64,000 nucleotides of DNA from Candidatus Moraniibacteriota bacterium (lineage in GTDB: Bacteria; Patescibacteriota; Minisyncoccia; Moranbacterales; GCA-2747515). This document shows positions 2,251 through 62,122 of the stretch, piece by piece (the stretch's first letter is position 1; each line of letters opens with the position of its first letter). The translations under genes were made by a program, and so were the position numbers. Under the pieces are notes generated by a model. That model ran no database searches. It worked only from the letters and a program-made list of their open reading frames with translations, and had not been told where the DNA came from. Location: assembly GCA_040772365.1 (NCBI GenBank), contig JAXGYI010000001.1, positions 5,416-69,415 on the forward strand, given 5' to 3'.

Positions 2251-4176
2251 TTATGAATTCATTTCACGCATTGTCTTCCTTGCTTCTCTGGCAGCTATTC
2301 TACTACCACCTTTCTCAAATGCAACTTGCTCATCAGTATTCATGGCATCCATAAAATCCTGCTGACTTCGCGCACTCCTGAGATTCTGATATCGATCATA
2401 AACGAAGTTAAAATCGTCTCGATATTGCGGATTTTCTTCGGCGCCATATTCCTTGATCGCCTTTTGTTTTGCAAGAGTTTTCACTTCCATCTTACCATAC
2501 ACATTTTTCAGTGCCTGCTGCCGTATCTCCGCAGAACTCAAGCTTACCTGACCCATTCTTGCCTTTTCTGCTTCCTTTTTTGTAATCTCACTCACCTCTA
2601 GTTGTACGACATTGTGTCCATAACCACTTTCGCGCATCTTCCTCTTTACAGCCTTTTGTGTTTCAGTATCAAGTTTATCAAATGTTTTGATAAGTTCATC
2701 AACCTCCTCATTTAATAAGTCCACCCTCTTTTCCGAGAGGACCTGTGCTTTTGCCTCACTACCAATATCCGTTGCTGTATTAATTGGCGCTTCCCGCATT
2801 TTCTTCTTTTCTTCTTCAATTTTCTTACCCTTGCTCCTCTCCAGCGCCTTTTTATCACCACCCGCCCACTCTGGACCTATTGAAACACCACGTGCAATAG
2901 ACTCATCTATAGTTGATTGATATTGCCTTGCAGACTCATCCTTGAAATTCCTTGCACGCGTCGGTAAACTACGTAAAACAGACATACCCTTTGCAACCCT
3001 TCTATCTAATGCACTATTTTCATTATTCGCCATATAATTAACCCCAGATCCAACAAGGCGATCCGTTGCCCTCCATCCCAAAACGGCACCTCCCTTACCA
3101 AGTCTCTGAACCCTATTCCTCGCCTTACCTGCCATATTTAATGCAAAACCCGTGCCTTCCGCACCAACTTTTTGCGCAGCAATAATCGCCCCCCACATCA
3201 CAAGAATAGCAATTAAATACTGCAACAATGTAAAAACAATATTAGAAGACACGCTATTCTCACCGGACACTGTTTTTGCTGCACCCCAAATTTGCATCTG
3301 CCCCAACTCATCCAAGATGGATATGGCTAATATAATGGCAAATAATGTAATAGGACCCACAAGTAGCTGCTTTGTAAAACCACTCCACCATTGAGAGGAA
3401 TACGACTGTGTTGAGGGAAATGCTGCCATGACATAACCAGCGGACGCAAAGATGAGATAGATTGTTAACGCCACAACACGCACAATTAAAACCATTGCAA
3501 TTGTACCAATGGTTAAGAGGAAGATGATGCCGACAATAATCCCCATGATCAGTGATTGATAGACACCCTCTTTATTCATTTGAAGTTTATGTCCTTTGAA
3601 ATAAGCATCTCCGATAACCAGTTTTGCAAATTGCGTCCTATCGGCAAATTTTCCCATAATACCACTCCCTGTCACACCACCACTTCCACTATTACCACTC
3701 CCATGAAGAATATACGTCATGGTAACGTTGGATACATCCACCAAGACGCGCGTGATTGGCCATGAGAAATTCACCAAAAGTGCCATCACAATAATCATCA
3801 CCCACGTATTGCGAATATGATAGCGCGAAATTTGAAAAACCGTGCAAAATGCGGAGTAGAGAAGGAAAAAGATAAAAAACATATTCAAAATATCCCGCAC
3901 TGTCTTCCATCCGGTATATACCGCACGATTATTCAAAATATCCATAACCTGCGGTTTCAATGTTAAATCAATCAGTGAAACAGCTAGAGAAATCAGCCAT
4001 CCTATAAGCCCAATAATTGCCAAAAATAGATTACCGACAAAATCTTCAATACCTAATGCTCCGCCGCCGGTAGCCTTTGGGTCTCCAGATCCAATATTTG
4101 CCTGCGCATAGGAAACCTGTACACACAAAAAGACTTGTGTAATAATTAATAGGATAAAAATTATTCTTTTACTCAT
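2251..4176 (-). CDS. Putative TrbL/VirB6-like polytopic membrane protein (641 aa)
   Basis: N-terminal signal peptide (MSKRIIFILLIITQVFLCVQVSYAQA), multiple hydrophobic helices, and a C-terminal E/K-rich hydrophilic domain. Located next to the PrgI-like gene. Confidence 0.45.
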   Translation of the reverse strand: MSKRIIFILLIITQVFLCVQVSYAQANIGSGDPKATGGGALGIEDFVGNLFLAIIGLIGWLISLAVSLIDLTLKPQVMDILNNRAVYTGWKTVRDILNMFFIFFLLYSAFCTVFQISRYHIRNTWVMIIVMALLVNFSWPITRVLVDVSNVTMTYILHGSGNSGSGGVTGSGIMGKFADRTQFAKLVIGDAYFKGHKLQMNKEGVYQSLIMGIIVGIIFLLTIGTIAMVLIVRVVALTIYLIFASAGYVMAAFPSTQSYSSQWWSGFTKQLLVGPITLFAIILAISILDELGQMQIWGAAKTVSGENSVSSNIVFTLLQYLIAILVMWGAIIAAQKVGAEGTGFALNMAGKARNRVQRLGKGGAVLGWRATDRLVGSGVNYMANNENSALDRRVAKGMSVLRSLPTRARNFKDESARQYQSTIDESIARGVSIGPEWAGGDKKALERSKGKKIEEEKKKMREAPINTATDIGSEAKAQVLSEKRVDLLNEEVDELIKTFDKLDTETQKAVKRKMRESGYGHNVVQLEVSEITKKEAEKARMGQVSLSSAEIRQQALKNVYGKMEVKTLAKQKAIKEYGAEENPQYRDDFNFVYDRYQNLRSARSQQDFMDAMNTDEQVAFEKGGSRIAAREARKTMREMNS

Positions 4177-4269
4177 ATTTAATATTATTCCCCACCCATG
4201 AAAATATTATAACATAAAATATCCCATTGGAGAAAATTTCTCCAATGGGATATGTAAAAAACAGTATTT

Positions 4270-4752
4270 TTACATTGCCATTATCTTACCACCAGCACCA
4301 TAGTTATTGGCGATATTCCTATAATCCCTCAACTCCGCTTCATATTTTTTTCGCCCCTCCTCATCACCAACATGGTAACATTCCAGTCCATATTGATCGG
4401 AGTTGTGTGAGTCTAACTTAAAAACAGTTCCCTCCTTAATCGGTATAATAATGAGAGCGCAAACCATATCTCCCTCTTTTTGTGACTGAATCCCATACCT
4501 CATAACAATCCAGTGGATATTTTGCTTATACGTGTAAGCTTCGATATTGGATTCCGTAATTTCAGCATCCACCCCAAGATCCTTAAGTAAACCAATAATA
4601 AAAGGATCACTTATCGCCCTAAGTCGATCATCATCATTTACAATCTTCTCATCTGAAGATATTGATGATGGTTCTTTTCCTCCACCAGCACACCCCAAAA
4701 AAAATAGAGGTGCTAAAACTGCCATTACTAAAAAAGTAATATTCTTTTTCAT
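4270..4752 (-). CDS. Lipoprotein (160 aa) with a lipobox; start placed at the internal Met
   Basis: MKKNITFLVMAVLAPLFFLGCAGG is a signal peptide plus LGC lipobox. A GGAGGGGAT RBS sits just upstream of ATG 4752. The longer ORF-track start (4905) lacks these signals. Confidence 0.6.
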   Translation of the reverse strand: MKKNITFLVMAVLAPLFFLGCAGGGKEPSSISSDEKIVNDDDRLRAISDPFIIGLLKDLGVDAEITESNIEAYTYKQNIHWIVMRYGIQSQKEGDMVCALIIIPIKEGTVFKLDSHNSDQYGLECYHVGDEEGRKKYEAELRDYRNIANNYGAGGKIMAM

Positions 4753-5487: not shown

Positions 5488-6453
5488 ATGGCAGAAGAGT
5501 TTTTTGTGGAAAATATGGACATCGGTATGCGTGTAGATCGCTTTTTGGCGCAAAAATATACAAATCTTACACGAGGGGAAATTGCGCGAATGTTGCGTTC
5601 AGGACATATCGTTGTAGATGGGGCACAAGCTAAGCCGAGTTTCGTGTTGCGTGGTGGTGAGCATATTTTTATGAGCGAGAGAAGGGAGAAGGTAGAATCT
5701 GTTATACCAAACCACGGTCTTTCTATATGTATTGTGGAGGATATGCGTGATTTTCTTGTGGTTGATAAGGCGCGTGGCATACAGGTACACCCAAGTCATC
5801 GTGAAAAAGAAAACACACTTGTCAATGCTCTTGTGGCACGTTATCCACACATTACCACTGTTGGTGATGATATAATGCGTCCAGGCATTGTGCATCGTTT
5901 GGATAAGGATACAACAGGATTGATGGTGGTGGCGAAATCACAGCGCGCGTTTATGGCGCTTAAAAAAGCATTTCAGGAAAAACGCGTGTACAAGGTGTAT
6001 CATGCTTTGGTGTGGGGTAATGTGAGAGGGGATGAGGGTGTAGTGGATGCGCCAATTGCACGTGCCACGTCATATACTAAACAAAAAATCGCCTTCGGAA
6101 AATATGTTGGGGATGCTAAGGATGCAAGAACGCGCTACCGTGTAGTGGCGCGTTATGATGTGTGTGGTGGTGAGGTGTCGTTAGTGGAATTATATCCCGA
6201 GACGGGTCGCATGCATCAAATTCGCGTGCATATGGCGCACATTGGGCATCCCCTTGTGTGTGATGTGCGTTACTATCGCAAAACAGAACAGAGATTACCC
6301 ATACCACTGCCAAAAACATGTGATCCATCTACATTTTATCTGCATGCCAAGGAGTTAAATTTTACACTTTTCGATAAAAAATATCATTTTACATCAGAAT
6401 ATCCAGAGAGATTTCACTGTGCAGTTGATTTTTTGAAGAAAGGTAATATATGA
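5488..6453 (+). CDS. rluD: RluA-family 23S rRNA pseudouridine synthase (RluD-like) with an S4 domain
   Basis: N-terminal S4-like region; catalytic motif HRLDKDTTGLMVVAKS; 321 aa. Confidence 0.85.
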   Translation: MAEEFFVENMDIGMRVDRFLAQKYTNLTRGEIARMLRSGHIVVDGAQAKPSFVLRGGEHIFMSERREKVESVIPNHGLSICIVEDMRDFLVVDKARGIQVHPSHREKENTLVNALVARYPHITTVGDDIMRPGIVHRLDKDTTGLMVVAKSQRAFMALKKAFQEKRVYKVYHALVWGNVRGDEGVVDAPIARATSYTKQKIAFGKYVGDAKDARTRYRVVARYDVCGGEVSLVELYPETGRMHQIRVHMAHIGHPLVCDVRYYRKTEQRLPIPLPKTCDPSTFYLHAKELNFTLFDKKYHFTSEYPERFHCAVDFLKKGNI

Positions 6454-6932: not shown

Positions 6933-7007
6933 TGAGCGAGTGAGCGGAATCGAACCGCCATTTCTACCTTGGCAAGGTAATGTAATAACCATTATACGAC
7001 ACTCGCT
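6933..7007 (-). tRNA. tRNA-Gly (anticodon GCC)
   Basis: Reverse complement folds as a cloverleaf with acceptor AGCGAGT/ACTCGCT, anticodon loop TTGCCAA and T-loop TTCGATT. Confidence 0.8.
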
Positions 7008-7030
7008 TTTACTAACAGGGTGTTCTGCTG

Positions 7031-7102
7031 TGGGACTAGCAGGGTTCGAACCTGCGACCAAGCGGTTATGAGCCGCGCGCTCTACCTCTGAGCTATAGTC
7101 CC
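7031..7102 (-). tRNA. tRNA-Met, elongator type (CAT; could instead be tRNA-Ile2 read by lysidine)
   Basis: GGGACTATAGCTCAGAGGTAGAGC...CTCATAA...TTCGAAC...TAGTCCCA. Base pair 1-72 is G-C, so it is not an initiator. CCA is not encoded. Confidence 0.8.
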
Positions 7103-7172
7103 AGGCGCTGTTGCTTGTGTCGCCACGCCACCATGTTATCCGATTTTTAGCACTGCGTCAATAAAATCATCA

Positions 7173-7247
7173 TGGTGCCGAGGGAGAGAATCGGACTCTC
7201 GACACAAGGATTTTCAGTCCTTTGCTCTACCACTGAGCTACCTCGGC
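7173..7247 (-). tRNA. tRNA-Phe (GAA), CCA encoded
   Basis: GCCGAGGTAGCTCAGTGGTAGAGC...anticodon loop CTGAAAA...TTCGATT...CCTCGGCACCA. Confidence 0.85.
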
Positions 7248-7282
7248 ATGACGTAAATATCATAGCACATCATAGTGTTTTG

Positions 7283-7356
7283 TGCACGCTGAGAGACTCG
7301 AACTCCCGGCCCTCTCGGTGTAAACGAGATGCTCTAACCAACTGAGCTAAGCGTGC
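7283..7356 (-). tRNA. tRNA-Val (TAC)
   Basis: GCACGCTTAGCTCAGTTGGTTAGAGC, anticodon loop TTTACAC, T-loop TTCGAGT, acceptor AGCGTGC. Confidence 0.85.
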
Positions 7357-7445
7357 AGTATAGATCCTATCCCATTATATACTGTTTTAAAGGTATGCGC
7401 CACATATAGTTTCTTTTGGAAAATCGTACTATCTGCATAGATCTG

Positions 7446-7530
7446 TGCCCAGGGCGGGACTTGAACCCGCACACCCCGTGAGAGGTCTAGGCCCTCAACC
7501 TAGTGCGTATACCAATTCCGCCACCTGGGC
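7446..7530 (-). tRNA. tRNA-Leu (GAG), class II with a long variable arm
   Basis: GCCCAGGTGGCGGAATTGGTA...anticodon stem-loop CTAGG-TTGAGGG-CCTAG, long variable arm, TTCAAGT T-loop. Confidence 0.8.
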
Positions 7531-17496: not shown

Positions 17497-18136
17497 AGAG
17501 ATGCTATAAAAAGGATAGTTGTATGCGTGTTTTTATACAATACACGATGGTGTCTGTCTCGATCAAAGTTGTGGTGTGCCCCATAGTATTTTCTGTGCGC
17601 GTGTTGTATAAAATCAATGCTTGCTCTAGTTTTTAGGTCTCTGTGACTAATATCACAGGTCGAAAAGTGTGTACGTGGAAGTTCTTTGCGGATGTCACCA
17701 CCCCAGATCTCAGAAAAATCATTCTTGCTATGTGGTACGCTCTGGTGCTTCTTTCCAGTTGGCACAAACTGAGTACAGTACAGTGTATGTTGTAGAAAGA
17801 AAATGCGATGGGAGATAGGCCATCACAGCAATGGTGGCTATGCGTGCAGTTGATAACGTGAATACTACAGATAGTGTGTAAAGCCTTTCTTTAAAGGCTC
17901 TTCCCTATTTTTAATGTAGCATACTATGAATAGACGTGTAAAGTGCGATTTTCATGACGAAATAATGTGCTACATAGCACGTCAACTCACTCAATGTAGT
18001 AACGTAAAATCCATGGATTGCTGTGTGATGTTGTAACACGTGGACCTATAGATGGGTAAGTTCCTCACTCTCTACAGGCTTCTATCAGTGTAAACCCTTG
18101 GTTTAAAGAGATTTTTGGTGAGATTTTTATGAGAGG

Positions 18137-18208
18137 TGCCCTTGGGAAGAATCGAACTTCCATCTAATCCTTAGGAGTGATTTGTTCTATCCATTGAACT
18201 ACAAGGGC
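18137..18208 (-). tRNA. tRNA-Arg (CCT) lying inside the long rbfA-nrdD intergenic region
   Basis: GCCCTTGTAGTTCAATGGATAGAAC, anticodon loop CTCCTAA, T-arm GGAAGTTCGATTCTTCC, acceptor CAAGGGC+A. There is an A-G mismatch at the bottom of the anticodon stem. Confidence 0.7.
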
Positions 18209-18372
18209 CTGGGGGACCCCCCCTTCCCTTTATTGTAGCGATTTTTCTGGAATCTTTCAATGAGGCTACGCAAGTGGTTATTATTAAAATATATTACATA
18301 AAATATGTCAAGTTTAAAATCCCCTATTTACTACACATTCTCTATAGTTGCACGATAATATTCTTCTCACCA

Positions 18373-19084
18373 TGTTCCACGTGGAACAGTGTGTATGCGA
18401 ATATATTTTCTACGAACTATGCAGTTTTTCCTTCTCGATTAAGAATTATACAATGATCTTTTAGTGATTTTTATAGGGTATTTGTAAATTTTTCATGTTC
18501 CACGTGGAACAATAAGCGAAAAGTAGTAATTTAGGGTTTTTCAGGATGTGTTCAGGTCATGCATATAGTATGATCTTTCCATTGTTCCACATGGAACAAT
18601 GGAAAGATGGGGTAATCTATAAAATAATATACTTACCTATGTTCAGATACTTAGTTTATTGGAGAGCCTAATTTTTTAGGGAAAAATTATACGCAGTATA
18701 CCACAAAATATATCTTTGGATCTTTTTGATAAAAACTTTCTTTGAATTTCATATTGTTCCACGTAGAACAAAATAAAGAACTATAAGGTGGGGGCTTTAT
18801 GGAGAAATACCACTAAAAGGTTCCACGTGGAACATTTTAGTGGGCGTATAGCGCATAAGATGCACTTTTAAGAGAATCTATCAAAACCTTACTTAGGGAT
18901 ACTGTTCTACGTGGAACAGTAAGTTAAGTTAAAATAACGCTCTTGATCTAGGTGTGGGATTTTTTTGTGAAGACGTATCGTTCTTTCAAGATATATATTT
19001 AAGAAATAACACAGTATTATCAAAAAAGCATTTTTAAAATCTTTATAAAAAGGATATTCTGAGCGCAGTGTTCCACATGGAACA
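18373..19084. repeat. Array of seven dispersed copies of a 16-bp palindrome (consensus TGTTCCACGTGGAACA) in the non-coding region upstream of nrdD
   Basis: Copies at 18373-18388 and 18496-18511 are perfect. Copies at 18582-18597 (CACATG core), 18755-18770 (1 mismatch), 18819-18834 (GGTTCC...), 18903-18918 (1 mismatch) and 19069-19084 (CACATG core) are variants. Spacings are 123, 86, 173, 64, 84 and 166 bp. Copy 3 extends to a 32-bp palindrome (18574-18605) and copy 5 to a 34-bp palindrome (18810-18843). Confidence 0.9.
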
Positions 19085-56774: not shown

Positions 56775-57503
56775 ATGTTTACATTTTTTGAGGAACATGA
56801 AAAAATTATCGGGGCAATGTCAACAGCGCAGGATGGCAACATGAAGCTCCGTGACGACCATGCCCAAGACGATATTATACAAAACCGTAAAACGTTTTAT
56901 GACAAGCTACGCATACCGCATGAGCGTGTTGTGTCAGCTGGTATTACGCATGGGGCATCAGTTGCTATCGTGCCAGATGTGGCACGTACGTGGTATCCGC
57001 AAACAGATGCACTCGTCACGCGCGCCACGGAGACATACCTTGCGATTACGACGGCAGATTGTTTTCCCGTGCTGCTGTACGATCCACATGCAGAAGTCAT
57101 TGGCATTGCGCATGCGGGGTGGCGCGGTATCGTGACGCATATTGTGCCAAAAACCATTACCATGATGGAATCCATTGGCGCTAGTCGTGATGCTATTCAC
57201 ATGGAAATCGGTCCCGGTATTTCACAAAATAGCTTTGAATTTGACTTTAGAGAAATGATTACGCACTTTGGTCTGTACAACCAGGATAAGTACATCGTAC
57301 CTGGAAGCACCATTGAAAAAGTGCGTGTTAATTTGCAGCAGATCATTTTGGATCAAGCGACGCAGGCCGGCTTGCAGCTACATGATATTAAAGGGTGTTC
57401 GGCGTGTACATTTTTGGATGAATCACTCTATTCGGCACGGCGCCATGGCGGTGACTCATTTAGCGCCATGGTGAGTGTCTTGGGGATGCGTAGCAATGCG
57501 TAA
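56775..57503 (+). CDS. pgeF: YfiH/PgeF-family (DUF152, laccase-domain) peptidoglycan editing factor / purine nucleoside phosphorylase
   Basis: TTADCFPVLLYDP...GIAHAGWRGIV motif. Confidence 0.8.
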   Translation: MFTFFEEHEKIIGAMSTAQDGNMKLRDDHAQDDIIQNRKTFYDKLRIPHERVVSAGITHGASVAIVPDVARTWYPQTDALVTRATETYLAITTADCFPVLLYDPHAEVIGIAHAGWRGIVTHIVPKTITMMESIGASRDAIHMEIGPGISQNSFEFDFREMITHFGLYNQDKYIVPGSTIEKVRVNLQQIILDQATQAGLQLHDIKGCSACTFLDESLYSARRHGGDSFSAMVSVLGMRSNA

Positions 57504-57569: not shown

Positions 57570-57598
57570 TTGTCAAAATAGTTTTTTGTGCGTAGAAT
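57570..57598 (+). promoter_or_regulatory. Promoter (TTGTCA-17-TAGAAT) upstream of the methyltransferase gene
   Basis: Good -35/-10 spacing, 45 nt upstream of the ATG at 57644. Confidence 0.45.
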
Positions 57599-57643
57599 AG
57601 ATGAAATTACACATGAAATACCGTTATTTACGTATAGCGCCCT

Positions 57644-58768
57644 ATGGCAAACGAAAATCTCACCAAGGCAAAAAACGCCAAAAACGACGAGTTCTATACG
57701 CAATTTGAAGATATCCAAAAAGAGATCAACGCGTATTTGGAATACGACCCCGATACCTTTCGGGACAAAGTCGTCTATTGCAACTGCGATGATCCCTATG
57801 AAAGCAAATTCTTTCAATACTTCGTGCTTAATTTCAAAGTTTTGGGACTCAAAAGCCTCATCACCACCAGCTACAAGCCTTCTCCCATTGCCAATACACA
57901 ACTATCCCTCTTTGGCGATCACAAAACCATTCGTCCCAAAAAAGGACGTCCAAAAGTCACTGCCAACCGCTTTATTCTCAATGATGTGGGGGATTATAAC
58001 AACGATGGTGCATTCAACGCCAAGGACGTCGCACTGCAACTACAAGAAAACAAAAACAACGAATGGGCACCACTTGAAGGAGATGGTGATTTTCGCTCTG
58101 AAGAGTGCATCGATCTTCTTCGGCAAGCAGATATTGTCGTGACCAATCCGCCTTTTTCACTCTTTCGGGAATACATAAAGCAATTGTCAGACTATGAGAA
58201 AAAATTTGTAATTATTGGAAATAAAAACATCATAACCTATAAGGAAGTTTTTCCTCTTATTAAAAACAATAAAATGTGGGTTGGTGCAACTAGTTTTAAT
58301 AAGGACATTCTTTTTATAGCTCCGCCAAATGCTGATCTTAGCAGTAAACCAAGAACGGCAATTCGGGAAGTAGATGGTGTTACCTATTTACGGTCGCCTT
58401 CTGTTTGGTTTACTAATCTTGACCACGGGCGACGTCATCAGTCACTTGAATTAATGTCTATGGCAGATAACCGTAGATTTAACAAAAAAGTTGCTAAAAG
58501 TAAGACTGCATATAAAAAATATGATAATTACGACGCAATTGAAGTGCCGTTTACTGATGCGATTCCTAAAGACTACGATGGCGTGATGGGCGTGCCAATT
58601 TCATTTCTTGATAAATACAATCCAGATCAGTTTGAGATTTTGGGAGCGACAGAAAGCGAGGGTAGAGGTTTTTCAAATGGACTTTGGGACGAATCAAGTA
58701 AAGTTTCACAGCCGCTTGTAGGCGGTGGCAGGGTTTACAAAAGGATTTTTATTAGGTTTAAGAGGTAA
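57644..58768 (+). CDS. N6-adenine DNA methyltransferase, EcoRI-methylase-like family (NPPF motif)
   Basis: N-terminal KNDEFYTQ...KVVYCNCDDPYESKFFQYF resembles M.EcoRI as I recall it. Catalytic motif IV is VVTNPPF. The 3' half of the gene (from about 58190) is markedly AT-rich. Confidence 0.65.
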   Translation: MANENLTKAKNAKNDEFYTQFEDIQKEINAYLEYDPDTFRDKVVYCNCDDPYESKFFQYFVLNFKVLGLKSLITTSYKPSPIANTQLSLFGDHKTIRPKKGRPKVTANRFILNDVGDYNNDGAFNAKDVALQLQENKNNEWAPLEGDGDFRSEECIDLLRQADIVVTNPPFSLFREYIKQLSDYEKKFVIIGNKNIITYKEVFPLIKNNKMWVGATSFNKDILFIAPPNADLSSKPRTAIREVDGVTYLRSPSVWFTNLDHGRRHQSLELMSMADNRRFNKKVAKSKTAYKKYDNYDAIEVPFTDAIPKDYDGVMGVPISFLDKYNPDQFEILGATESEGRGFSNGLWDESSKVSQPLVGGGRVYKRIFIRFKR

Positions 58769-58780
58769 ATTTTACAAATT

Positions 58781-59230
58781 ATGGAAACAGGATATCTGTG
58801 GCCAATAGCTTTGGCTGTTGTGGGATCTGGTTTTGTGTCAACTATTTTGACAATTGCCAATAGTTGGGCAAAGGATTATTTCTTAGCAAAAAGAGAAGCG
58901 AAAGACGATGTTTTTAAGATTAGAAAAGATATACATAATGATTTTGTTGAATACATGGATTTTTTATATAAAAATGATTTATCAGACAATGAAAGAGCCA
59001 AAAAGAAATACCATTTTTTGAAGACCTACAGAATGATTTTTTTATATTCTGCCGATGAGGATGTGAAAAAAATAAATAAAATGATTGAAGCAAATATAGA
59101 CCTTGTACAAAAAGATGATCCGTACATGCAAGACAAGAAAAATAAAGTTGCTGAAAGTTTTTTACAACTAAGAAAACACACAATAAAAGATACGTCTTTG
59201 AGTGTGGATGATTTTCTGCATATAACTTAA
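58781..59230 (+). CDS. Hypothetical N-terminally membrane-anchored protein (149 aa) in the low-GC island
   Basis: TM helix LWPIALAVVGSGFVSTILTIA, then a charged domain. AT-rich codons. Confidence 0.5.
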   Translation: METGYLWPIALAVVGSGFVSTILTIANSWAKDYFLAKREAKDDVFKIRKDIHNDFVEYMDFLYKNDLSDNERAKKKYHFLKTYRMIFLYSADEDVKKINKMIEANIDLVQKDDPYMQDKKNKVAESFLQLRKHTIKDTSLSVDDFLHIT

Positions 59231-59253
59231 TAGACGCGTGGCATAATAAGGAG

Positions 59254-59919
59254 GTGAATTGTATGAAAAAAAGGTATATAGGGAAAATCAAATTAAATGG
59301 TAAAACATTTATAAACCTAATTTGTAATAGCAAAGGAGACTATATATTTTCCTTTCCAAAATCTAGTGATATTTTAGATGAAGGGGGCTATTTCAGATCA
59401 CATCTTACACTGCACATACAAAACAATCGATTAACATGGAAGGTTACAGACTTTGGAAATTCTACAAAAGATTTTAGCGATGTACTTGGTGTTGCCGACA
59501 AGGAGGGTTTTTATGTATCTCGAAATCAGGGATTATTGAATGACATTGATCTTTTAAAAGGAGAAAGATATTTAGATTTAGAAGATCCCACACATGTTGG
59601 GAAGGTTATTACTTTTGCTGAGAGAAATATACATAAAAAGGGAAGTGGATTAGATTTTTTTTCTGACCCCAAGAATGATGAAAAAAAATTTTCTGAAATT
59701 ATTAATCTTCAGATACCAAAAAAAATTTCTGCTGTAGAGTTAAATATATATGCTGCAAAGAATATAAAATATAATCTAAATCGTATCTATAACATGCGTC
59801 AATCTAATTGGAAGTCAGGCTGTTTTATTCAAGATAATACTAAAAACGCAAAGTATACTTTTGTTGTAATAGTTGAGGATTCCGTATTTAATCCTATTGG
59901 AGGTTATAATTTCTGTTAA
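59254..59919 (+). CDS. Hypothetical protein (221 aa) in the low-GC island
   Basis: ORF tightly following the previous gene; no recognised motif. Confidence 0.5.
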   Translation: MNCMKKRYIGKIKLNGKTFINLICNSKGDYIFSFPKSSDILDEGGYFRSHLTLHIQNNRLTWKVTDFGNSTKDFSDVLGVADKEGFYVSRNQGLLNDIDLLKGERYLDLEDPTHVGKVITFAERNIHKKGSGLDFFSDPKNDEKKFSEIINLQIPKKISAVELNIYAAKNIKYNLNRIYNMRQSNWKSGCFIQDNTKNAKYTFVVIVEDSVFNPIGGYNFC

Positions 59920-60173
59920 TTAGTGCCAAAGTCCTTCGATCCATTGTTTTTTGTAGTCATATCTTTTTTGAATGACATGTGTAAACAAAATAAGAAAAAT
60001 CGTGAAAAACGGTGAAAAAAGTTGGTCAATTCACGACTTTCTTGCAAAAATCGTGAAAGTAGTGTGAAATAGGGGAAAGAAGCAGAGTGCTTTTTGGATG
60101 AGGGCGCGCGAAAAATTGGCACGTGCGGTGATCTTGTCACGCTTAACTAATCAATACATCACAGTAGCATCAC

Positions 60174-61337
60174 ATGAAAACAACATTACGCACCGACATT
60201 ACGGTGAGAGAACTTTGCGATGGATTTGTGTACAACGAATTAGAAGGTAAGGGGCTTTTTGGTTTGTCGGGGAAATTAACGATCCAGCCGGAATACCAAC
60301 GTAACTATATCTATGCCGACGGCAAGAAGGATGTGGCAGTGATTGAGTCAATTTTAAAGGGTTATCCTTTGGGCTTAATTTATTTTAACAAGGTAGAAGA
60401 GGACACATTTGAGGTATTGGATGGGCAGCAGCGGATCACGAGCATCGGACGCTACGTAACAGGAAAATTTGCAGTAAAAGATGAAAGTGGGATGGAGCAG
60501 TTTTTTCATGGCTTAGCAGCGGATAAACAGAAGAAAATTTTGGAGACGACCTTATTAATTTATGAGTGCGAGGGAGAAGAGAGTGAAATTAAAGATTGGT
60601 TTAAAACCATTAATATTGTGGGTGTGGCGTTGAATGAGCAAGAGAAGTTGAATGCGATTTATTCTGGACCGTTTGTGACACTAGGCAAGGAGGAGTTTAG
60701 CAATTCGCAAAATGCCAATGTGCAGAAGTGGAGTGCCTATGTTTCCGGCAGTGTGAATCGGCAGGATTTTTGGGAGCGGGCGCTTTCGTGGGTGAGTCGG
60801 GGAGATGTTGATAGCTACATGAGCCGGCATCGGTATGATGACAACATTACAGAGGTGAAGACGTATTTTACCAGTGTAATTGATTGGGTATCCGGTGTGT
60901 TTGTGGATGTGACAAAGGACATGCGCGGGTTGGAGTGGGGGCGCCTATACGAAGCCTATCATGAGACTGCATATGATCCGTCGGAGGTAGCGGCGCATGT
61001 GCAGCGATTGTATGCAGATCCCTATATCAAAAACTATAAAGGTATTTTTGAGTATATTCTGGGTGGCTTGACGGATACAAAACTATTGCATGTGCGGGTG
61101 TTTGATGAGGCAACAAAAAGATCTGTCTATGCTGCGCAGACGGCAGAAGCAAAGAAGTTGGGCAAGTCCAATTGTCCGCTATGCGCCATTGGGCATGATG
61201 CCAACAACATCAAAATATGGAACAGTACTGACATGGATGCTGATCATGTGACGGCATGGAGTAAGGGCGGTGCGACGGACGCGGCAAATTGCCAGATGTT
61301 GTGCAAAACACACAATCGCGCAAAAGGTAATCGCTAG
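60174..61337 (+). CDS. DUF262 (ParB/Srx-like, GmrSD N-terminal type) domain fused to a C-terminal HNH nuclease motif
   Basis: N-terminal [10 protein letters not shown] and DGQQRITS (DUF262 hallmarks). C-terminal CPLCAIGHD...[12 protein letters not shown]...[15 protein letters not shown] is an HNH with two Cys pairs. Confidence 0.7.
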
Positions 61338-61477
61338 GTGCGTGTTTTATGGCATGATGTGTGAAACATTGTACTGATCGTACATTGATTTTTTGTGTGC
61401 ACTATGCTATAATAGATGTGTAGAAGTCAATACTAAGGTTCGTAAAACGGGTGCAGAGCTCGTTTTTGTGTATTTCT

Positions 61478-62122
61478 ATGGCACGTAAAAAGACCCAACA
61501 ATCAAAGAATAAGTGGTATGCTGTCCGATTTGTGCGTTCGCCACAGGATGGTATTGCTGTAGTTTTTGCGGTGGTGTGTAATATTGTAGTTTTTGGATCA
61601 CTTGGCATGTTGTACTACACGCAAAAAGACATTGCGCTGTCTATGGAGCATGTTGATCATTCTATCGCCGTGATACAGAAGATGTATGATCCAAAATTTA
61701 TACAGGCGCGCAATCTTGCAATTGAGCTCTATGGTTATCCGATGATGCATATGGTCCCGTACTTAGTACGCGAAGATCCCCAAGTGGTGGCATTTTTGGT
61801 AGCGATTGCCAAGAAAGAAAGCGCGTGGGGCAAGCGGGCGCCGGTACTGAACGGCGATGATTGCTATAATTACTGGGGATTTCGGCAAGTACGTACGCGC
61901 ATGGGTACTGGGGGACATACATGCTTTGATGGTCCGCAGGATGCTGTAAGTACGGTTGCTGCGCGCGTGCAGGATCTTATTGCCAAACAATACGATACGC
62001 CACAGAAAATGGTTGTGGTGTGGAAGTGTGGTTTTTCATGTCAGGGGCATACGGAGGCAAGTGTGCGGAAGTGGGTTTCTGATGTGAACTATTACTATAC
62101 GCGCATGTACCATCATTTTTAG
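61478..62122 (+). CDS. Glucosaminidase-like (FlgJ/lysozyme-family) peptidoglycan hydrolase with an N-terminal TM anchor
   Basis: AIAKKESAWGKRAP...YNYWGF resembles the mannosyl-glycoprotein endo-beta-N-acetylglucosaminidase motif. A TATAAT lies upstream at about 61410. Confidence 0.55.
   Translation: MARKKTQQSKNKWYAVRFVRSPQDGIAVVFAVVCNIVVFGSLGMLYYTQKDIALSMEHVDHSIAVIQKMYDPKFIQARNLAIELYGYPMMHMVPYLVREDPQVVAFLVAIAKKESAWGKRAPVLNGDDCYNYWGFRQVRTRMGTGGHTCFDGPQDAVSTVAARVQDLIAKQYDTPQKMVVVWKCGFSCQGHTEASVRKWVSDVNYYYTRMYHHF

Follow-up and report, generated by a model that had tools for sequence, protein, structure and literature searches.

The systems closest to the locus described here are the EcoRI and type III restriction-modification systems, the DUF262 nucleases GmrSD, BrxU and SspE, and restriction operons in which defence genes are embedded. 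In type III systems the methylase (Mod) supplies recognition, and mod alleles differ only in the recognition domain. The usual pattern in type II systems is that the restriction endonuclease is less conserved than the methylase. The DUF262 domain acts as a nucleoside triphosphate (NTP)-dependent switch in BrxU (PMC12707154) and in SspE (PMC13251355). Toxin and defence genes are found embedded in restriction operons, such as PrrC in EcoprrI, and RhuM/Doc (PMC3710099; PMC12707154), and Payne et al. 2024 applied the idea systematically, as 'guilt-by-embedding', to Hma, BREX, DISARM and type I hosts (bioRxiv 10.1101/2024.01.29.577857). The present locus lies in a stretch of 64,000 nucleotides (nt), hereafter the window, from a Candidatus Moraniibacteriota bacterium of the Patescibacteriota (assembly GCA_040772365.1, contig JAXGYI010000001.1, positions 5,416 to 69,415 of the forward strand). 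Four co-oriented open reading frames (ORFs) on the + strand span 57644-61337 in the ORF listing: a methylase gene (M), two intervening genes (X and Y) and the gene of a DUF262-HNH nuclease (R). A sequence-only reading of this DNA had described these four genes, as the ORFs bear out, and had suggested that they form a single restriction-like or abortive-infection module. Comparison with other genomes recasts that module in a testable form, as what is probably a conserved two-gene restriction-modification pair, M and R, with unrelated inserted cargo, X and Y; the statement is an architectural one. The main lead lies outside the frame of the sequence-only reading and consists of a methylase that swaps cassettes, an invariant nuclease and a junction between the two that serves as a slot for defence genes in Patescibacteria.

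M (57644-58768, + strand) encodes a 374-residue EcoRI-family N6-adenine DNA methyltransferase. The protein matches the Pfam family EcoRI_methylase (PF13651) at 3.8e-120 and 401.7 bits against a cut-off of 26.4, with residues 5-371 covering profile positions 1-343 of 345, and the PADLOC model MTase_II over its full length (2.3e-101). The catalytic NPPF motif occupies residues 168-171 (nt 58145-58156), in agreement with the first assignment of an EcoRI-like methylase. R (60174-61337, + strand, 387 residues) combines an N-terminal DUF262 domain (Pfam GmrSD_N, PF03235; 7.1e-21, residues 36-163) with a C-terminal HNH domain (PF01844; 1e-6, residues 352-387), again as first described. Its motifs are DGQQR in the ParB-like NTPase fold domain (residues 83-87), CPLC (residues 334-337) and DADH...HN (residues 355-381), and residues 8-386 match the PADLOC model REase_II PDLC03418 at 3.9e-81. 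Separate, neighbouring methylase and endonuclease genes, both matching curated PADLOC type II models over their full length, are a feature of type II systems that the pair displays.

The comparison relied on the best 80 of 443 stretches matched in a one-genome-per-species collection, picked by their likeness to the R of the window; L-numbers denote the compared loci. An R relative is encoded by 406 of the 443 candidate stretches, and the best 80 loci span more than 10 phyla, including Patescibacteria, Chloroflexota, Bacteroidota, Pseudomonadota, Planctomycetota, Actinomycetota, Nitrospirota, Elusimicrobiota and Omnitrophota. Gene order and gap could be counted at the 76 loci with enough upstream DNA, and an EcoRI-family methylase lies upstream of R on the same strand in every one of them. 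The gap between the two genes measures -23 to +18 nt in 53 loci (22 of these with an ATGA overlap), 60-209 nt in four and 354-3484 nt in the remaining 19. The pairing of M and R is conserved across bacterial phyla, usually with translational coupling. Because of this constant pairing and the matches to the PADLOC type II models, M has a candidate nuclease partner in R, and the earlier statement that the methylase lacks an obvious cognate restriction enzyme next to it no longer holds.

R homologues number more than 8000 at E <= 1e-10. The 120 listed are 385-409 residues long, nearly all of them 387, are 77-86% identical to the query and come from Patescibacteria, Chloroflexota and other groups; in RefSeq the family is labelled only 'DUF262 domain-containing protein'. 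More divergent R subfamilies, such as the one on Aeromonas caviae p1, show about 38% identity. The M-R pair is present on 8 IMG/VR contigs and, among cultured bacteria, on annotated plasmids of Moraxella osloensis, Enterococcus faecium, Arthrobacter, Rhodococcus and Aeromonas, where the two genes are labelled 'adenine-specific methyltransferase EcoRI family protein' and 'DUF262 domain-containing protein'. No published description of the pair turned up in the literature searched, and the prototype enzyme behind the PADLOC REase_II model is not named in that literature, in NCBIfam or in the plasmid annotations, which gave only the DUF262 label. M-R is a widespread restriction-modification family that has been labelled computationally and is apparently uncharacterised, although it occurs in hundreds of species and on antibiotic-resistance megaplasmids of Enterococcus faecium. 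On these megaplasmids the pair lies near the resistance genes optrA and erm(A) (NZ_CP142416.1, L086 3810-6164), and its methylase (WP_214330490) carries an M.EcoRI-like cassette, of class 2 in the grouping given below.

The junction between M and R is not always closed. At 19 of the 76 loci it is widened to 354-3484 nt by other cargo, and in two further loci cargo immediately precedes R, while M would lie past the end of the contig. The genes in this slot are all co-oriented with the pair, mostly leave only a few bases to the stop of M and to the start of R, and the GC content of the gap is usually lower than that of the flanks. Their Pfam families include RhuM, Bro-N, KilA-N, ORF6N, T5orf172, two ThsB-like TIR proteins, PemK/MazF, AAA_15/AAA_21, AAA_13, DUF2130, DUF4209, a ParB-like protein with a D12 methylase, and IS200/Y1 transposases. 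Eight of the ten slot genes checked match PADLOC models of defence or candidate defence genes, namely PDC-S05 (5.6e-142), PDC-S13 (1.2e-139), ThsB (3e-66 and 6.7e-76), AriA/Old, also GajA (2e-40), PDC-S39 (4e-32), PD-Lambda-5_A (2e-16) and HEC-04 (/PtuA) (1.5e-20). The M-R junction repeatedly holds co-oriented accessory genes, and the majority of these match anti-phage families, known or candidate. The defence context proposed for the locus is supported. Not all slot contents are defence genes, since IS200/Y1-type transposase genes occupy the slot in L033 (6438-6887) and L063 (6347-6952). No link was seen between the type of cargo and the class of the C-terminal segment of M.

Cargo is unevenly distributed among hosts. 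With taxa read from record titles, and four records named only 'bacterium' placed in the group outside the candidate phyla radiation, 12 of 21 loci of Patescibacteria type bear cargo vs 5 of 53 others (Fisher p = 3.9e-5). The locus L037 holds a duplicate of the first 45 codons of R (5529-5663, 84% identical) within its cargo, followed by a RhuM fragment, a Bro-N gene and the intact R; the fragment looks like a recombination scar in which R was used as a homology arm, showing a route of cargo exchange. Three loci contain DUF2130 proteins beside AAA ATPases of the AAA_15 or AAA_13 type, in or near the slot (L035 3898-6999, L011 37-3260, L003 8501-9784), and this combination may constitute a separate two-gene module; no PADLOC model matches DUF2130. 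Three others carry a 430-residue ParB-like protein resembling PD-Lambda-5_A with a D12-class adenine methylase, a second methylase module nested in the first (L019 3728-5874, L070 3575-5864, L081 4870-7004). Patescibacteria have few recognisable defence islands, and the M-R junction is a compact place in which to seek new defence genes in this group. Candidates in the slot are X, Y and the unannotated genes of L071 (347 residues), L003 (193 residues) and L034 (145 residues).

In the window the slot is filled by DNA of unusual composition. Against a window-wide GC mean of 0.438 (standard deviation 0.039; 1200-nt windows over the 64 kb), the minimum of all windows is 0.298, at 58901, and the 2-kb bin 58001-60000 has a GC content of 0.335, the lowest of the 32 bins. 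Gene by gene, GC content is 0.30 in X and 0.295 in Y vs 0.40 in M, 0.45 in R and 0.47-0.53 in the flanks, and GC at third codon positions is 0.27 in X and 0.215 in Y. The sequence-only reading had placed a low-GC centre at 58190-59950; it is indeed the lowest in the 64 kb, and its start moves to about 58286, inside the M gene at the beginning of the variable cassette VR2, with an end near 59950. The deviation in windowed GC supports the horizontal acquisition that had been proposed for this part, and the tract from VR2 through X and Y has likely been recombined horizontally into the M-R operon. A second, independently made assembly of this strain (99.1% identical across 12 kb) has the same gene arrangement, which is therefore no chimera. 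No transfer RNA (tRNA) genes occur in 50-64 kb of the window, where the borders of the island lie, and the borders have no flanking direct repeats of note.

X (58781-59230, + strand), the first cargo gene, encodes a 149-residue orphan protein with a single N-terminal hydrophobic helix (Kyte-Doolittle peak 1.74 at residues 6-24), the small anchored membrane protein of the first description, and a charged helical remainder. It is a called gene in public records, and no homologue was detected among 5.8e9 clustered proteins. Its sub-threshold matches are TatD_DNase (17 bits, cut-off 27) and a PHROG family of unknown function (0.0015), and it is similar neither to the N-terminally anchored 193-residue slot protein of L003 nor to any other slot gene. 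Y, the second cargo gene, starts at GTG 59254 in the ORF listing, which gave the 221 residues first reported; the likely start is the ATG at 59263 that follows GGAGG, giving 59263-59919 (+ strand) and 218 residues, the form held in public records. That it belongs to no named family stands: it is part of a small family of proteins of about 210 residues whose fold is unrecognised, and neither X nor Y has a significant match in Pfam, PADLOC or other family libraries. An indexed search found one relative of Y at 47% identity and an exhaustive hidden Markov model search found 21 representatives, in which P32, H47, H51, K60 and K166 are invariant. Structure prediction was unusable with a two-sequence alignment (predicted local distance difference test score, pLDDT, of 33) and reached a pLDDT of 88 with a 20-sequence alignment. 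The assignment of Y to the HxT-type 2H phosphoesterases, considered for a conserved HFTLHT strand, was dropped for want of a second motif and of fold support. A narrower alignment retrieved five loci from genome collections; the relatives whose context is readable are solitary among housekeeping genes (dnaX, infB, pnp and similar), no methylase, nuclease or X-like gene was found near them, and Y-family genes are AT-rich relative to their hosts wherever seen.

The presence of X and Y in other M-R loci was examined by tblastn against the 83 other loci, which gave no match to either. X and Y are not part of the conserved M-R unit and count as strain-specific orphan cargo. They are nested and co-oriented between M and R, and the precedent of PrrC and RhuM as genes embedded in restriction operons makes them candidates for accessory defence, an idea to which the slot contents of other genomes lend some support. 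By analogy with these cases, X and Y may tentatively be regarded as co-expressed accessory genes that add a second line of defence or an abortive-infection function, X being a putative membrane-anchored effector and Y its partner. A slightly stronger case, yet one still short of an even chance, can be made that the two genes are passengers: orphans or mobile-element remnants in a permissive recombination hotspot, or, for Y, a housekeeping-type accessory gene of Patescibacteria carried along. The AT-rich habit of the Y family, the company of Y relatives among dnaX, infB and pnp, the transposases in the slots of L033 and L063 and the lack of defence-family matches for X and Y agree with passenger status. 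However, both frames are long, intact and preceded by ribosome-binding sites in AT-rich DNA, where open frames of such length would arise by chance at about 7e-7 for X and 1e-9 for Y. The Y family is under selection, since it combines five invariant residues with a confident predicted fold, and at other loci the slot mostly contains genes that match defence or candidate-defence families.

Several observations weigh against the reading of X and Y as an inserted defence add-on. Recurrent embedding or a defence-family match was not found for either gene in PADLOC, Pfam or the 83 loci, both are absent from other slots, and the relatives of Y sit amid housekeeping genes. Co-transcription of X and Y with R is uncertain because a 254-nt spacer, atypical for these operons, separates Y from R. 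Insertion itself is deduced from composition and cross-species comparison, since no close relative with an empty slot was found; the close relatives all have M at the same place, with contigs ending inside M.

The conservation of the two partners is markedly different. Mean pairwise identity is 0.79 for R vs 0.54 for M, and across 83 R sequences 115 of the 387 positions never vary and 197 reach at least 95% conservation. At the nucleotide level the R genes are only about 71% identical to that of the window, so the conservation of the protein is due to selection and not to recent spread. The variation in M is concentrated in short segments. The first, VR2 (residues 215-253; 58286-58402, + strand), falls into at least 13 discrete classes, with identity of 0.74 within a class and 0.20 between classes, and the classes recur across phyla; the window carries class 6. 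The second, VR3 (residues 336-364; 58649-58735, + strand), comprises 26 or more classes, and their assortment is independent of the VR2 class (permutation p = 0.30). Complete swaps of the C-terminal domain of M were considered and rejected, as residues 261-337 are conserved and variation is limited to the short cassettes.

The classes of VR2 are uncoupled from the remainder of the system. The core of M is 0.72 identical within VR2 classes and 0.69 between them, and R is 0.789 identical within and 0.786 between. In a test of covariation by column-wise mutual information over 59 M-R pairs and eight VR2 classes, the M columns informative on VR2 class are exactly residues 215-253. No R column is informative on VR2 class, the maximum being 0.86 bits vs 0.99 for the null 95th percentile of the maximum, and none is informative on VR3 class. 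The sole part of M that correlates with R is the segment of residues 78-142, which exists in two deep forms, and the correlation reflects two old sublineages of the whole system.

Exchange of cassettes is visible within a single species. Strains of the same species as the window have upstream flanks 97-98% identical to it up to about 58290, and three VR2 alleles occur at this locus between flanking M residues that are identical. L090 and L092 lose similarity at 58285-58291, the start of both VR2 and the low-GC tract, and carry other cassettes; L090 also differs from the window at VR3. The contigs of three same-species samples (L090 8804-9874, L092 6263-6949, L091 2197-2979) stop in or just after M, and their alleles differ, which suggests that natural populations contain several cassette alleles side by side and that this mixture interrupts metagenome assemblies at the locus. 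Tandem arrays of intact methylases of different VR2 classes precede a single R in two loci, with three methylases in L049 (3499-6982) and two in L057 (4693-6995). The features of type III alleles, variable regions between conserved flanks and alleles exchanged within one species, are thus present, and the role of the variable regions in recognition is inferred.

M.EcoRI provides a point of reference for the cassettes. M is about 43% identical (tblastn) to a bona fide M.EcoRI of 326 residues on the ColE1-type Escherichia coli plasmid NZ_CP116485.1 (L098 1-1336), encoded beside the R.EcoRI C-terminus. The VR2 of M.EcoRI shares 67-72% identity with each of the eight class-2 cassettes and no more than 48% with any other, and the enzyme combines VR2 class 2 with VR3 class 11. 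Judged by sequence, M.EcoRI is one combination of a modular methylase family that is elsewhere paired with a DUF262-HNH nuclease. Its Tyr204, reported as a DNA photo-crosslink site, would fall within VR2. The position of H235, a residue that governs DNA intercalation, base flipping and specificity in M.EcoRI (PMC2396439), corresponds to a conserved RRH motif directly after VR2. By their pattern of variation and their homology to M.EcoRI, VR2 and VR3 are candidate DNA-recognition elements.

A mechanism consistent with these observations can be outlined. M would methylate adenine at a site set largely by the exchangeable cassettes, and R would cut DNA that lacks the mark of M. R, having no matching sequence specificity of its own, would depend for its recruitment or licensing on M bound at sites without methylation, with the DUF262 NTPase domain as an NTP-dependent switch and the HNH domain as the cutter. 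As R is near-invariant and does not covary with the cassettes, direction of R by M is the most economical mechanism; if the cassettes are recognition elements, so that different loci methylate different sites, an invariant R that read DNA on its own would be lethal after a cassette swap, which favours direction by M. That M supplies the targeting of R, in a type III-like logic built from different parts, appears from the comparison of sequences to have nearly an even chance of being correct. If R is steered by M, the specificity of the system could be reprogrammed by swapping a cassette of about 40 residues, which bears on how new targets evolve without killing the host and may be of use in enzyme engineering.

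A few points limit the case for direction of R by M. The choice of loci nearest to the R of the window under-samples the diversity of R, while the diversity of M within this set is the actual question. With all loci pooled, only generally avoided palindromes stand out as avoided motifs, and GAATTC shows no depletion around class-2 loci (observed/expected 1.02). GATC has an observed/expected ratio of 0.56 around class-1 loci vs 0.85 around others, the one class-specific signal and a weak one, with a pooled z of -7 and a per-locus p of 0.02, uncorrected, and class 1 may target GATC. The class-1 loci are L006, L012, L013, L026, L032, L036, L044, L047, L076, L082, L083 and L084, and the methylase gene on plasmid pSKB0120-6 of Moraxella osloensis NBRC 115781 is also of class 1.

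The principal competitor to direction of R by M is a classical type II system, in which R reads a fixed sequence alone, all M proteins protect that same sequence, and the variable segments are specificity-neutral surface loops, perhaps diversified by phage inhibitors. PADLOC assigns type II labels to both proteins, the genes are separate as in EcoRI, the regions of M that flank the cassettes are well conserved, and most classes show no clear class-specific motif avoidance, all of which fit such a system. The cassettes argue against it, as discrete classes that recur across phyla, swap between strains and combine in tandem arrays follow the pattern of recognition-domain alleles, and M.EcoRI, a GAATTC enzyme, falls in only one of the 13 classes. 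In addition, R contains an NTPase-type DUF262 domain with an intact DGQQR motif, which plain type II enzymes do not need and which hints at a dependence on NTP. R also exceeds M by far in conservation, opposite to what is usual for type II systems. The absence of covariation speaks against a classical type II system only if the cassettes set specificity. On this balance a classical type II system is rather unlikely, although it has to be taken seriously.

It is far less likely that R is a type IV enzyme of the GmrSD/BrxU kind, a functionally independent neighbour of a solitary methylase in a defence island. The N-terminal DUF262 domain, weak PADLOC matches to HEC-05/06 and NsnA across the DUF262 part, and the JGI label 'McrA' on some R homologues point in this direction. 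Against this, the fixed order on the same strand and the frequent 4-nt overlap across more than 10 phyla indicate coupling at the level of the operon, and R has no DUF1524 domain, is 387 residues long, and matches the type II endonuclease model over its full length, with BrxU (E = 0.58) as its only match among Protein Data Bank sequences. The suggestion in the sequence-only reading that R is a modification-dependent enzyme of the GmrSD/BrxU type is therefore not sustained for a protein that is always linked to a methylase. Least probable, and to be set aside, is that the four genes make up one integrated, as yet unnamed system for restriction or abortive infection that cannot do without X and Y, for although the genes are co-oriented, closely spaced (12 nt from the M stop to X, 32 nt from X to Y) and identically arranged in the second assembly of the strain, X and Y occur in none of the 83 other loci (non-co-occurrence was what the sequence-only reading itself had named as counting against a module), 53 of 76 M-R pairs have no gene between them, the relatives of Y stand alone without a methylase or nuclease nearby, X has no relatives, and the composition of both is sharply unlike that of M and R.

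Possible control elements are found at either end of the operon. A candidate operon promoter, TTGTCA-17-TAGAAT (57570-57598, + strand), is proposed from its match to the consensus (10 of 12 positions) and lies 46 nt upstream of the M start. The sequences TTGTCAAAATAGTT at 57570-57583, in the promoter-like site, and AACTATTTTGACAA at 58840-58853, at the start of X, form a perfect inverted repeat of 14 nt that may be due to chance in AT-rich DNA. The non-coding spacer of 254 nt that precedes R (59920-60173, + strand) may be a regulatory or promoter region and may give R its own control, judging by its sequence; most other M-R loci have no spacer at this junction. It holds three copies of AAAATCGTGAA, two direct at 59996-60006 (+) and 60047-60057 (+) and one inverted at 60030-60040 (-), and the only exact copies of AAATCGTGAA within the window are those in the spacer. 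The copies of AAAATCGTGAA may represent an operator, and they are not conserved in other loci. An RNA element in the spacer was considered and rejected, as there is no Rfam match and the folding z is 0.13.

The locus is flanked upstream by pgeF (56775-57503; Pfam Cu-oxidase_4, 5.7e-48), as had been recognised, and downstream by an ORF of 223 residues (61451-62122) that has no Pfam match, so that its earlier label of cell-wall hydrolase finds no backing. Elsewhere in the window, stretches below a GC content of 0.36 are limited to 3901-4701 and 17801-18401 (about 0.34 over 1200 nt), the latter of which overlaps a tRNA gene (18137-18208). Five tRNA genes are clustered at 6935-7530 (- strand).

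Taken jointly, the observations could describe a distinct kind of restriction-modification, in which a cassette-directed M acts with an almost invariant, NTP-gated R and the junction between them is a docking site for second-line defence genes, above all in the small genomes of Patescibacteria, with X and the new-fold Y as examples; the combined picture is speculative and, in its entirety, doubtful. Comparison with the described systems places its parts. As in operons with embedded defence genes, accessory genes are co-oriented and nested between restriction components, and RhuM (PDC-S05), Bro-N (PDC-S13), DUF4209 (PDC-S39) and AAA_13 PrrC-like ATPases also fill the M-R slot elsewhere. In contrast with those operons, the two-gene M-R family is not one of the hosts covered by the published surveys cited above, and X and Y match no candidate family and are embedded in no other locus compared.

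With GmrSD, BrxU and SspE, which are DUF262-DUF1524 nucleases of the type IV and phosphorothioate-sensing kinds and in which the binding or hydrolysis of NTP gates cleavage, R shares an N-terminal DUF262 domain with DGQQR and a C-terminal nuclease of the His-Me-finger type. It differs from them in its length (387 residues vs about 600) and in having an HNH domain of the PF01844 family with neither DUF1524 nor a long linker. R is, moreover, always paired with a methylase and presumably attacks unmodified DNA. The likeness to EcoRI lies in the methylase, which is of the same family, with NPPF and the conserved RRH segment that holds H235 of M.EcoRI. The partner of M is a DUF262-HNH protein, whereas R.EcoRI is a PD-(D/E)xK enzyme, and M precedes R here, in contrast to the EcoRI plasmid, on which the end of the R gene is found upstream of M. 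The cassette of the window is of class 6 and that of M.EcoRI of class 2, so GAATTC cannot be assumed as the target of the M of the window.

Type III systems of the Mod-Res kind, such as EcoP15I, differ in both proteins: the methylase here is of the gamma class and EcoRI type and that of type III of the beta class, and R consists of a ParB-like DUF262 domain with HNH while Res joins an SF2 helicase-like ATPase to a PD-(D/E)xK nuclease. As R is not built from SF2 and PD-(D/E)xK domains, the M-R pair is no member of type III, and only the proposed logic is similar. The resemblance lies in discrete, swappable segments of M within conserved flanks, in the overlap of M and R, and in a conserved, non-covarying nuclease with an NTPase domain downstream.

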